Source: Nitrosopumilaceae archaeon (GTDB lineage: Archaea; Thermoproteota; Nitrososphaeria; Nitrososphaerales; Nitrosopumilaceae). Taken from it: 25,116 bases of DNA. This document shows positions 7,567 to 25,020 of the stretch, piece by piece. The notes under the pieces are model-generated. The model was not told the DNA's origin. It was given only the letters and a program-made list of their open reading frames with translations, and ran no database searches. Position 1 is the first letter of the stretch, and every line of letters begins with the position of its first letter. The position numbers and the translations under genes are program-made. The DNA lies in assembly GCA_965200155.1 (NCBI GenBank), contig CBDATR010000023.1, positions 1 through 25,116 on the forward strand, read 5' to 3'.

Positions 7567-7658
7567 GTATGAGTTCACCTGTGTCTAAATTTACGCACAA
7601 CTGATCGCGACAGTTAATGTGATTTGTGCATAAGATTCCGGAAGACGTGAACTCATAC
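7567..7658 (-). mobile_element. MITE-A (92 bp)
   Basis: TSD TGTTTAGA. Confidence 0.95.
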
Positions 7659-7898
7659 TGTTTAGACCCTCCGGATCGCCAAACCGCCCGTTAAACTCAT
7701 GAATTTTATCCCATCTCTTGTCAGAAAGAATCCGCCATTCAGGACACCGGTGAACCTCAGTCCAAGGTTACGCATCTCTTTCAGTATTCTCTCCATCACA
7801 CTCTTGCATGCCTCCAAGTCATTATGGGTCATGAATGGCAATACCTTTGCCGGTCCGGTAAAGCAGCCCATGCAGTCTGTCCCGGGACCTGTATCATC

Positions 7899-7990
7899 GT
7901 ATGAGTTCACCTGTGTCTAAATTTACGCACAACTGATCGCGACAGTTAATGTGATTTGTGCATAAGATTCCGGAAGACGTGAACTCATAC
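7899..7990 (-). mobile_element. MITE-A (92 bp) with hybrid flanks
   Basis: Left flank GTATCATC is the TSD of the 8231 copy; right flank TGTTTAGA is the TSD of the 7567 copy. Confidence 0.95.
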
Positions 7991-8230
7991 TGTTTAGACC
8001 CTCCGGATCGCCAAACCGCCCGTTAAACTCATGAATTTTATCCCATCTCTTGTCAGAAAGAATCCGCCATTCAGGACACCGGTGAACCTCAGTCCAAGGT
8101 TACGCATCTCTTTCAGTATTCTCTCCATCACACTCTTGCATGCCTCCAAGTCATTATGGGTCATGAATGGCAATACCTTTGCCGGTCCGGTAAAGCAGCC
8201 CATGCAGTCTGTCCCGGGACCTGTATCATC

Positions 8231-8322
8231 GTATGAGTTCACCTGTGTCTAAATTTACGCACAACTGATCGCGACAGTTAATGTGATTTGTGCATAAGAT
8301 TCCGGAAGACGTGAACTCATAC
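8231..8322 (-). mobile_element. MITE-A (92 bp)
   Basis: TSD GTATCATC. Confidence 0.95.
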
Positions 8323-17235: not shown

Positions 17236-17642
17236 GTATGAGTTCACGTCTTCCGGAATCTTATGCACAAATCACATTAACTGTCACGATCAGTTATGCG
17301 TAAATTTAGACACAGGTGAACTCACACTAGAGGAGACCTTCATGTGATAGAAATGGCCACATGTATGTGCGGCAAAAAACAACTGGTCCCAGCAGCGGGC
17401 GTACCAGAGAGTGGTGGTTTTGGAGTTCAATTATGTGGTGCCATCACTGCATTACGTGCGGAAAAGATTCCAATAAAGCGCATACCTGTAATTTCGAGGG
17501 ATCTCTTCGGCCTGAATATATCGGTGGGTGCGGTAAACAACATAATTGCCGTATGAGTTCACCTGTGTCTAAATTTATGCACAACTGATCGCGACAGTTA
17601 ATGTGATTTGTGCACAAGATTCCGGAAGATGTGAACTCATAC
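17236..17642. mobile_element. Composite mini-transposon: inverted MITE-A pair (17236-17327 +, 17551-17642 -) around a 223-bp IS66 transposase fragment
   Basis: A single TSD GTGATTAA flanks the whole unit (17228-17235, 17643-17650). Cargo 17328-17550 is homologous to about 22952-23175. Confidence 0.92.
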
Positions 17643-21584: not shown

Positions 21585-21668
21585 GCGGGGATCGCCTAGC
21601 CTGGTAGGGCGTGGGATTGCTAATCCCATGTCAGAAATGACACGGGGGTTCAAATCCCCCTCCCCGCG
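21585..21668 (+). tRNA. tRNA-Ser (GCT)
   Basis: Acceptor GCGGGGA/TCCCCGC, anticodon arm TGGGA-TTGCTAA-TCCCA, long variable arm TGTCA-GAAA-TGACA, T-loop GTTCAAA. Confidence 0.95.
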
Positions 21669-21704
21669 CTTCGTTTAATACTGTCATCTATGTAATATTT
21701 AGGA

Positions 21705-21866: not shown

Positions 21867-21927
21867 TGCTCGGCTTGTAATGCATTGTCGAGCATTATCA
21901 CTCTCTTTTATTGAGACCTAACATGTG

Positions 21928-22019
21928 GTATGAGTTCACCTGTGTCTAAATTTACGCACAACTGATCGCGACAGTTAATGTGATTTGTGCACAAGATTCC
22001 GGAAGACGTGAACTCATAC
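21928..22019 (-). mobile_element. MITE-A (92 bp) at an inversion breakpoint
   Basis: Flanks AACATGTG and AGATCTTT differ. AGATCTTT is the reverse complement of AAAGATCT at 22480-22487. Confidence 0.95.
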
Positions 22020-22191
22020 AGATCTTTCTCGGTAGACGCAAGGGTATCCTGAAGAAGTTTATTTTCCAGTTCCAATTCCTTATAGGACCGGCGTCTTCTC
22101 ATTAGATTCTTATTGCAAATTTGGTATTTAAGTAAAATATTGTCATACCAATCTATATCTTAGTGAATGATCAAAACACGTGAACTCATAC
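22020..22191 (-). mobile_element. Inverted left end of the IS66-family element (IRL, leader and first ~27 transposase codons)
   Basis: 24-bp TIR at 22168-22191 reads GTATGAGTTCACGTGTTTTGATCA on the minus strand. ATG at 22102 gives MRRRRSYKELELENKLLQDTLASTEKD, which joins KDLAHYKE at 22480. Confidence 0.88.
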
Positions 22192-22432
22192 CAGATAATC
22201 TCTCGGTCTTGAAATGGGATTCATCCTGGGTAACAATGGCATAATCCATCTTTATGTAACGTGCAGCCTTTTCTGACATTTCTTGCCTCCATTTTTTCAC
22301 GTCTTCCATTGAATCATAATTCATGTGGATTGGGGATGACTTTTTGTTGGAGCAACCCCACTTTTTGGCGTAACGCTTGAACCTGATTTGCGCTCAGTCT
22401 TATTCCGGATATCTCTTCGAGGTAATCCTGCT
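22192..22432 (-). pseudogene. Inverted 5' part of an IS630-family transposase
   Basis: Minus strand reads ...KKWRQEMSEKAARYIKMDYAIVTQDESHFKTERLS and joins via ATTATCTG to VRFWAP at 24335. Confidence 0.78.
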
Positions 22433-22479
22433 GGGATGTATTCTATCTTATTATATGATCAAAACACGTGAACTCATAC
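22431..22479 (+). mobile_element. Extra copy of the IS66 right end (IRR')
   Basis: CTGGGATGTATTCTATCTTATTATATGATCAAAACACGTGAACTCATAC nearly matches 24286-24334. Confidence 0.85.
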
Positions 22480-24276
22480 AAAGATCTTGCACATTACAAG
22501 GAACGTGTGAGAGTATTGGAAGCATATGTGTCCCGCACCACAAAAGAAATACGAAATCTCACACAAGATTTCCAAATTATTAGGAATTATGTAAATGAAT
22601 TGAATGAGAAATTAAAAGAAAAACAGGGGAAAATTGCGGTACTCACAACGCGACTTAAATATTATGAGAATGCTCACTCGCCACCATCCCTTCAATCCCT
22701 CCAGTACAAGAAGCGAAAACAGGAGGAACAGAAGCGAAAACAGGGAGATAATAAGCAACAGACAGAAGCCAGTACGAAATCAGCCAAAAAGGCTGGCGCG
22801 CAAAAGGGACACAAGGGGGTTTCCCGTTCCCACAACCCCGGCAGAGTAGTGCATCACACCTTTGAGTACACACCAATATGTGAGTGCGGCAATATGATGA
22901 CAAAAATTGGTTGGAAACAACGACACATAACGGAATTAATACCAGCCAAAATAGAGGAGACCCTTCATGTGATAGAAATGGCTGCATGCAAGTGCGGCAA
23001 AAAACAACTGGCCCCAGCAGCGGGCGTCCCAAAGAGTGGTAGTTTTGGGGTTCAATTATGCGGTGCCATCACCGCATTACGCGCAGAAAAGATTCCAATA
23101 AAACGCATACCTGTAATTTCGAAGGATCTCTTCGGCCTAAATATATCGGTGGGTGCAGTAAACAACATAATTGCCAGGGCCGCCGATGCATGTGAATCAT
23201 TTATGGAAACAATTCATGAGAATATAATAAAATCACCCAGCATACATGTGGACGAAACTGGTATATCACTGGCGGGTAGGCGTGGCTGGGTATGGGGGAT
23301 GCGAGCCGAAGAGTGGATGATGTCCATATATGACAAAAGTAGGAGTTCAAATGTAGTGAACAAATACCTGAACGGTTACCAGGGAGCGATAGTCACAGAC
23401 AGGTACGTTGTGTATCGCCGGTTTGATGACGGTGGGAAGCACCAGTTGTGTTGGGCGCATTTATTGCGCGATACCCAGGCATTACATGCAGGATTCTATA
23501 TTGATCCCGGTGCTCAGGACGCCCGGATCAAACTTGACAACGACCTGAAAGGATTGTTCCGGAGCGCACGGGAATCCCTGAATCACTGCGGGCCGTCCGC
23601 GCAATTACGACACTCATTTGAGACAGGAGCAGATGCATCAGTACTGTGATGTTGATGATACTGAACTACAAAAGAAGGTAAAAGGATTGAATAAGGCCAT
23701 ACCATGCATGTTCGTATTCTTAGAATATGACAGTGTGGAGCCCACCAACAATCTAGCGGAGCAGGCTTTGCGATACGCAGTGGTATTCCGCAAGATTAGT
23801 GGCCAGATAAAAGGTGGTGAAAGGGCAATGCGCCGCATGTCTACATTTGTATCATGTGTTCAGACATGGAGGGCTCAAGGCCTGTATGAGTTCACGTCTT
23901 CCGGAATCTTATGCACAAATCACATTAACTGTCGCGATCAGTTGTGCGTAAATTTAGACACAGGTGAACTCATACGATCATGTTACTAATAGCGCCTGTG
24001 AGGGGTTGTATATCACTCATCTCAGAATTAACAGCATGGATTTTGCATATTCTATCATATTTTGATTGCAATCAGTAACCTGAGAATTCGTACCATGTAG
24101 TCGTTTAGGTGCCCAAAGTCACAATAATGTTTTCTTGTATGAGTTCACGTCTTCCGGAATCTTATGCACAAATCACATTAACTGTCGCGATCAGTTATGC
24201 GTAAATTTAGACACAGGTGAACTCATACCAAGGCCTTTCTGTTATGAACGAGGTTGCTGCCAGAATGCAGTTATAA
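22480..24276 (+). pseudogene. IS66-family (single-ORF, ISBst12-like) transposase, main body, disrupted
   Basis: Coiled coil, NAHSPPS, GAQKGHKG, CECG/CKCG Zn ribbon, HVDETG, TDRY, HQLCWAHLLRD and PTNNLAEQALR. Frameshift near 23620-23640. The true C-terminus QGLSVMNEVAARMQL* resumes at 24229 after the composite insertion. Confidence 0.92.
23884..24228 (+). mobile_element. Composite unit: direct MITE-A pair (23884-23975, 24137-24228) around 161 bp of cargo
   Basis: A single TSD CAAGGCCT at 23876-23883 and 24229-24236. Inner flanks do not match. Confidence 0.92.
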
Positions 24277-24310
24277 TTAAAAAAACTGGGACGCATTCTA
24301 TCTTATTATG

Positions 24311-24334
24311 TGATCAAAACACGTGAACTCATAC
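24311..24334 (+). repeat. IS66 right terminal inverted repeat (24 bp)
   Basis: TGATCAAAACACGTGAACTCATAC followed by TSD ATTATCTG, the reverse complement of CAGATAAT next to IRL at 22192. Confidence 0.9.
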
Positions 24335-25020
24335 ATTATCTGTGCGATTCTGGGCCCCTGCAGGCAGGCGCGTACTCATGGTATGGACCGGCGGGCGATA
24401 CCGGTTCTCCATGGCCTGTACCATTGATTAATGATGGCAGGGTATTCCTTGATGATTACACGATCATAGACACAGAGAATTTCCTGGATCACATGCATAA
24501 CAAGGTGGGCAAGATGGTACTGTTCGTGGACATGGCACACCTCAAGGAAGGCCAAAGAATTCTTTGCTGATCTGGACATAATCGTAATAGAGTATCCGGT
24601 TGGACATCCGTACCTGAATCCGGTCGAGGAATTCTGGAGCGTACTCAAGAGGGGGATGGATCACTCCATACGATATTCGGATATCAATTACCACAAGCAG
24701 GCAGTGTATGATTTCAAAGATGACCATAAGTTCGATTATGATTTTAACAAATTCTGGAACAGAAAACCAGCTGATGGATTAATACTACCAATCATGGAAT
24801 CGTATGAGTTCACGTCTTCCGGAATCTTATGCACAAATCACATTAACTGTCGCGATCAGTTATGCGTAAATTTAGACATAGGTGAACTCATACATGGAAT
24901 CAGTACGCAAGGGGGGACCCAGCGACCCAAGGCAGAAGAGGCGATTCAAAAATGCAGGCGGTGCGGAAAGTACATCCGTATCGGCCGGTGTAGCACAAAA
25001 GGCCAAACTTGCAAAGTAGA
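24335..25020 (+). pseudogene. 3' part of the IS630-family transposase, frameshifted
   Basis: MVLFVDMAH and EYPVGHPYLNPVEEFWSVLKR (IS630 'P..P.LNP.E..W..LK' motif). Right boundary approximate. Confidence 0.8.
24802..24893 (+). mobile_element. MITE-A (92 bp) in the IS630 remnant
   Basis: TSD ATGGAATC. Confidence 0.95.

Follow-up and report, generated by a model that had tools for sequence, protein, structure and literature searches.

Elements at the locus and their genomic setting

We analysed a window of 25,116 nucleotides, which is the entire contig C23 of the 2.38-Mb assembly of a Nitrosopumilaceae archaeon (51 contigs, completeness approximately 88%). By gene content the organism looks like an ammonia-oxidising archaeon, and the best matches to the window in a search of public runs were sponge metagenomes. 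The 12-bp terminus GTATGAGTTCAC occurs 1419 times in the assembly (up to one mismatch allowed), where it bounds 539 paired MITEs and about 160 IS66 ends; 1370 element ends were examined for their flanks. MITE and IS66 sequences combined make up 6.5% of the assembly. A 16-letter form of the terminus was absent from all 18 family relatives, so that its expansion is apparently lineage-specific among the genomes searched; one of 12 other genomes had a single match. A scan of a metagenome collection for the terminus gave 34 single matches, none with more than 33 matching letters and none with protein similarity. The left flank pattern of the locus gave no match in that collection, which may omit this genome.

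The large element at the locus was firmly identified as IS66, with Pfam matches to the IS66-type DDE domain (PF03050, E = 1.6e-28) and to zf-IS66 (PF13005, E = 6e-5). A copy on contig C34 has 1674 bp, matching ends and a single ORF of 508 aa (coding strand, ORFs of at least 150 aa considered), and an exact 8-bp repeat flanks 17 of the 50 IS66 left-right configurations. The label ISBst12 group was taken from the group description in the available part of PMC12898284. As described there, the group resembles the element studied here in its single gene, its IS66 DDE domain, its 8-bp repeat and its ends starting with GT; the element of this archaeon differs from that description by its 25 identical terminal letters and by the approximately 540 matching MITEs. 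The MITEs (539 copies, mostly of 92 bp) are short and non-coding, reach a high copy number and have both termini (12–14 identical letters) and duplication length in common with IS66, as expected of MITEs derived from this IS66; 340 of them are flanked by an 8-bp repeat with at most one mismatch. The element that hosts the IS66 insertion is probably IS630-like, an assignment weaker than that of IS66: its Pfam match to DDE_3 (E = 0.004) was below the cut-off of that profile, and three of its four weak tblastn matches were on annotated IS630 genes. Its left end has been lost at the focal locus.

From left to right, the host flank AACATGTG is followed by end B and end A of a MITE, 172 bp of inverted IS66, an inverted IS630-like remnant, a 49-bp IS66 right end, the remainder of IS66 copy 1 and the remainder of the IS630-like element (Table 1). 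The MITE is of the most frequent haplotype (76 of the 539 copies), and the inverted 172 bp are 100% identical to several IS66 copies. The empty form of the site occupied by the 345-bp composite was present in contigs of four runs, where it may come from any IS66 copy. Elsewhere in the window, positions 236–847 hold a 312-bp exact tandem duplication located at the 3' end of an IS5-like element.

Table 1. Features of the focal locus. Positions are those of the window.
Feature	Position	Strand	Remarks
tRNA-Ser(GCT)	21585..21669	+	ARAGORN; host context left of the element pile
Unpaired 8-bp flank AACATGTG	21920..21927	+	no partner beside other termini in the assembly
92-bp MITE-A	21928..22019	.	end B at 21928, end A at 22019; without own duplication
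IS66-internal target AAAGATCT, inverted copy	22020..22027	-	joined to MITE end A
IS66 copy 1, left 172 bp, inverted	22020..22191	-	left end at 22191; start of transposase gene
IS630-internal target ATTATCTG, inverted copy	22192..22199	-	passenger inside the inversion
IS630-like pseudogene, 5' remnant, inverted	22192..22430	-	start lost; 97% to a C13 copy
Right end of a second IS66, 49 bp	22431..22479	.	fused to the IS630 remnant; terminus-free junction
AAAGATCT, direct copy	22480..22487	+	joined to the 49-bp IS66 right end
Remaining IS66 copy 1	22480..24334	+	frameshifted single-gene transposase; right end 24286-24334; PF03050, PF13005
Two-MITE composite, 345 bp	23884..24228	.	in IS66 3' part; own 8-bp repeat CAAGGCCT
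ATTATCTG, direct copy	24335..24342	+	joined to right end of IS66 copy 1
IS630-like pseudogene, 3' part	24335..25009	+	right limit approximate
Further MITE in IS630-like 3' part	24802-24893		own duplication

The relatives place a tRNA gene after the small gene left of the pile in eight of nine loci, and the corresponding tRNA-Arg of this genome was found on contig C51, which has no overlap with C23. The element pile therefore occupies what is a short spacer in the relatives. These are too distant (70–72% identity at best) to provide an empty site at base level.

Split target duplications and the inverted segment

A sequence-only reading of this region had described an inversion marked by two 8-bp duplication pairs that now lie in opposite orientation. 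All four 8-mers were located at the proposed positions, each abutting the 12-bp terminus, and AAAGATCT was joined to MITE end A (22020) and to an IS66 right end (22480), as had been claimed. Both targets are single in uninterrupted copies elsewhere, and the opposite orientation of the pairs confirms the inversion. Each of the four 8-mers adjoins exactly one of the 1370 ends examined. With shuffled flanks, the genome-wide expectation of inverted pairs was 0.12 at distances under 500 bp and 0.23 at 1–2.5 kb. Rebuilding the targets gave sequences present uninterrupted in paralogues within the assembly (spanning BLAST matches: IS66 target, 55; IS630 target, 4), so both pairs are true split duplications. 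A single IS66 copy on contig C9 matched both halves of copy 1, at 100% and 98%. The 49-bp end differs from the right end of copy 1 at three positions and thus stems from a second IS66; one deletion eliminated both the body of this second element and the start of the IS630-like element.

The statement that flipping the segment restores both reading frames held with one correction. The frames do meet at both targets, but two different segments can be flipped to this effect and they imply different histories. One is 22020–22479; the other, 21928–22479, which the sequence-only reading had overlooked, also yields an ordinary MITE with a perfect direct duplication, in an IS66 that is collinear and lies within IS630. 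In both histories AAAGATCT is the sole mark of a breakpoint, while the ATTATCTG pair is a passenger.

We favour, with a probability of roughly 0.65, an intramolecular transposition carried out by two facing ends, MITE end A and an IS66 right end, either directly or via an end-to-end junction. The geometry of the locus, its two targets, the foreign origin of the 49-bp end and the mixed-end units present elsewhere are read directly from the assembly. At the locus the target is duplicated in opposite orientation with each copy at the tip of an element, which is the layout of a deletion-inversion by facing ends. What preceded this layout, in which order and by what chemistry it arose, and that a spacer was lost, we infer. 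The ancestral order would have been host flank, MITE, a spacer now lost, the right end of the second IS66, the IS630 remnant and an intact IS66 copy 1, with the MITE at AACATGTG and its end A facing the second right end. End A would have been paired with this right end by an IS66 transposase that acted in trans and was encoded by an intact copy, for instance that of 508 aa on C34. The DNA between the paired ends would have been lost, and each of the two ends would have been attached to a different strand of AAAGATCT, a target at a distance of a few hundred bases. Such an event would leave 22020–22479 (460 bases) inverted, the 8-bp duplication in opposite orientations and the ATTATCTG pair passively split. 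The reaction may have been direct, as in Tn10-type deletion-inversion, or may have taken two steps through an end-to-end junction of IS30 type. The two-step route fits at least as well as Tn10-type cutting, given that copy-and-paste transposition is reported for ISDge4 of the ISBst12 group (available text of PMC12898284). The 23 abutting end pairs of the assembly have spacers of 0–35 bp with no fixed length, and for this reason the assembly does not decide between the two routes. Facing MITE and IS ends, the substrate of this history, are common in the assembly: 80 lie within 1 kb of each other, some of them 7–11 bp apart.

The identical final structure would result if the MITE had inserted normally at AAAGATCT and an exchange had then inverted 21928–22479, either within or at the tips of the 12-bp terminus that the IS66 right end has in common with end B. 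Such an exchange would create no further duplication, and the mixed ends would have acted in it rather than in a transposition. Each of the two histories needs about six events, and the local sequence fits them equally. We consider the exchange unlikely, in spite of the orderly MITE and IS66 that its flip produces. The deletion by which the 49-bp end became fused to IS630 would account for the missing AACATGTG partner, and unequal exchange between direct 92-bp MITEs is visible at the flanks of a 332-bp tandem duplication in the window (7567–8322). The exchange point at the focal locus, by contrast, comprises only 12 common letters, and the contigs of four of four runs showed no branch to an IS end past the host flank, bearing in mind that contigs drop rare variants.

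A terminus flanked by AACATGTG or CACATGTT, a search for which the sequence-only reading had proposed, was found at the focal locus only, among the 1370 ends and on C23 and C51. No nearby partner is present for 555 of the 1370 ends in this assembly of approximately 88% completeness, and both histories include a deletion that would remove it; the missing AACATGTG partner consequently does not separate the two models. Target preference scores (1.69 vs. 1.66) did not separate them either. A replicative inversion of the Tn3/IS26 type was excluded because the far breakpoint is an IS66 right end and a second MITE is missing there.

No event using both ends would be needed if a longer chain of steps had built the layout, for instance separate insertions into a favoured site combined with deletions and with recombination between longer repeats. 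Target hot spots are indeed common (in 41 of the 125 groups of ends that have an outer flank in common, the end types differ), and an IS66 site 2 bp from the AAAGATCT target has also been used. Nevertheless, AAAGATCT itself adjoins only the two focal ends, the ATTATCTG pair and the sister copy on C9 show that both IS66 halves originated from a single element, and the segment is not bounded by a long inverted repeat. We judge such a chain very improbable.

Public contigs bear on the reality of the junctions. In four of four runs, from two studies, an unbranched path of single-copy depth leaves the host flank and covers the first 27 letters of end B, up to 21954. The last 15 of these 27 letters lie past the terminus that end B has in common with the IS ends. 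The overlap is short of the 31-letter rule of the contig search, and one of the runs is possibly the source sample. Three further runs contain about a quarter of the sequence words. The three inner junctions were absent among the contig matches listed for the four runs, as was the pre-inversion allele with facing ends. The absence of the inner junctions, a region made up almost entirely of repeats and the lack of overlap between C23 and C51 would suit an assembly artefact at common termini, which we nonetheless find scarcely credible. The decisive junction (22479/22480) has only 12–14 letters in common with any MITE end. This is less than the usual assembly word sizes, and a misjoin at this point is unlikely for that reason. 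In addition, contigs of up to 540 kb span many 1.7-kb IS copies, which suggests a long-read assembly, the left junction is present in contigs of two studies, and the unique fusion of the 49-bp end to IS630 is not an expected product of an artefact. The public contigs also contained an opposite-strand joint, 22489/23977, at single-copy depth in three of the four runs; none of the readings tried located it in the assembly.

Pairing of MITE and IS66 ends across the assembly

End pairing was analysed in the 676 ends outside simple short elements, counting the pairs that enclose up to 3 kb and carry an exact 8-bp repeat. There were 60 such pairs: 17 plain IS66, 28 MITE-MITE, 9 mixed MITE/IS and 6 others, compared to a shuffle expectation of 0.11 for the mixed and 0.33 for the other class. 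A lone mixed unit is explicable by a deletion inside one IS, so that the argument is carried by recurrence. Two mixed units recur with different repeats, one at C10 381825 and C24 187449 (99.3% identical) and another at C13 51431 and C25 10634 (97.3% identical). Each of these moved with mixed ends at least once, unless the same deletion occurred twice. A further mixed unit, C10 536581–536900, is 100% identical to C24 295224–294905, where the MITE lies inside the IS and keeps its own duplication. For a 272-bp unit the source is likely on C9, being 72 bp longer through a repeat-insert-repeat; the C9 site is a hot spot, which makes this link uncertain. The 72-bp repeat-insert-repeat lies in the C9 153860–154203 region, inside the right part of IS66.

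The mixed classes differed. End A with an IS right end enclosed a repeat in 7 of 77 configurations, compared to none of 164 in the three other main mixed classes (end B with right end, 0/56; left end with A, 0/58; left end with B, 0/50). Among like ends the counts were 7/140 for A with A and 1/151 for B with B, and a unit combining end B with a minor left-end variant was found in 1 of 13. The proposal that the ends are interchangeable is therefore right in part, since they do combine but not freely. End A has 14 letters in common with both IS ends, and a passive exchange should thus yield no preference for the right end (p = 0.02); a preference of the enzyme can account for the bias. When repeated units were merged, the single-class comparisons gave p = 0.07 each and the pooled comparison p = 0.003. 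As the configurations are not independent, we read this bias as a lean and not as proof. The deletion-inversion history uses the favoured pair, A with the right end, while in the exchange history end B and the right end would have to swap, the combination with no repeat in 56 configurations. On these genome-wide data the claim that a mixed MITE/IS pair acted in one transposition event is the more likely reading of the locus.

Reciprocal flank swaps, the expected trace of exchange between inverted copies, were absent even between full 92-bp copies: none was detected among 199 MITEs without their own duplication, in a genome with 262 inverted MITE pairs within 3 kb. The test requires both pairs to be intact and exact, so that inversions trimmed later are missed. 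Homology-driven inversion seems to be rare in this genome.

Several units have end A on both sides. In the window, 17236–17642 holds two opposite MITEs with ends A outward, an internal IS66 piece and one common 8-bp repeat. A 2721-bp unit with end A on both sides forms a source/daughter pair at C24 502960–505680 and C10 260490–257770, in which the two copies are 100% identical and the source is without the repeat; a second pair of this kind is located at C10 132907–133236 and C10 35375–35704. On many contigs, hot spots were observed at which the same base in copies of other elements has been taken by a MITE in one copy and by IS66 in another, and in both orientations; one of them is situated within IS66, about 39 bp from its left end. 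The frequency of hot spots weakens arguments from common flanks.

No second well-supported mixed-end inversion was found in the assembly. The candidate at C10 160727/163205 is doubtful, as its MITE is truncated, its IS possibly has a degenerate duplication of its own and paralogues give no support; moreover, the relatives show that the enclosed gene came from elsewhere. This small gene (C10 160953–161381), between the truncated MITE and IS66, lies about 50–80 kb from both neighbours in three of three relative loci. The candidate at C24 489684/499429 also had no paralogue support. Inverted AAATATTG pairs on C10 were left out of the count, being at a hot spot with several possible partners. Flipping of whole MITEs in place was rejected: the MITEs were identical in only one of 14 same-site pairs of opposite orientation, compared to 11 of 22 in the same orientation and 5% at random. 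Independent insertion explains the opposite-orientation pairs, though they seem slightly closer to each other than random pairs.

On a larger scale, two IS66 right ends and an 8-bp direct repeat bound a 25.6-kb block on C13 (23697–49277). Its flanking genes on either side are adjacent in five of five relative loci, the block has no long second copy in the assembly, and its genes occupy scattered positions in several places in the relatives. Among its genes are some that resemble those of glutamyl-tRNA synthetase and isoprenoid enzymes. Two like ends may have moved the block as one large composite.

Related systems and significance

Tn10, IS30 and Ac provided examples of such rearrangements decades ago. 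The novelty here lies in the combination: in an archaeon, an IS66 end is combined with that of a MITE, and the bias of the ends can be measured. The comparisons that follow refer to the available portions of the cited papers. The deletion-inversion layout was defined for the inside ends of Tn10 (PMC2723962); in both cases an element is found at the target, followed by an inverted segment and a second element rejoined to the target, with loss of the intervening DNA. Two copies of one IS and a cut-and-paste transposase act in Tn10, whereas the ends here belong to a 92-bp MITE and an IS66 remnant. In IS30 (PMC9333248), a junction forms between ends of separate copies and then attacks a target close by, giving deletions or inversions; IS30 differs in its 2-bp duplications and strictly left-right junctions, while a junction class of fixed spacer was absent here. 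The reversed-ends events of maize Ac/fAc (10.1101/2021.03.08.434479) likewise combine ends of two different elements, one of them defective, with an 8-bp repeat at both breakpoints and loss of the intervening DNA, but they depend on a eukaryotic hAT transposase, involve inversions of about 80 kb and have a known progenitor allele. Two MITEs in either orientation mobilise the DNA between them in TIME-COMP (PMC4133298), comparable to the MITE-MITE pairs that make up 28 of the 60 repeats here; that system is of the Tn3 family, both its ends are MITEs, and inversion is not described in the portion available. The 'hybrid TSDs' of Halobacterium salinarum (PMC7002104) are split duplications from which archaeal rearrangements, including inversions, were reconstructed, in that case between copies of the same element. 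The available parts of PMC10969869 and PMC8024623 held nothing further on mixed ends, and we found no report of a mixed MITE/IS66-end inversion in the open-access literature searched.

The DNA turned round by the inversion is defunct transposon sequence, and no consequence for the host is evident; the inversion is of value as a footprint. The genome also illustrates that densely spaced MITEs are able to disrupt the gene order of a sponge-associated archaeon. The mechanisms of IS66 are described as 'insufficiently characterized' in the available text of PMC12898284, and for their study this genome supplies a countable set of end pairings, which is modestly useful. As a tentative generalisation, with somewhat less than an even chance of being right, the IS66 transposase may treat the approximately 1300 near-identical ends as a rule-bound pool, in which end A replaces the IS left end, A–A pairs form as well and pairing of two right ends is allowed. 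Such a pool would drive composite moves of up to 25.6 kb, including single-copy housekeeping genes, as well as deletion-inversions, and MITE ends would be the main engine by which this chromosome is reshuffled. If this is true, the end pool would constitute a natural read-out of IS66 end recognition.
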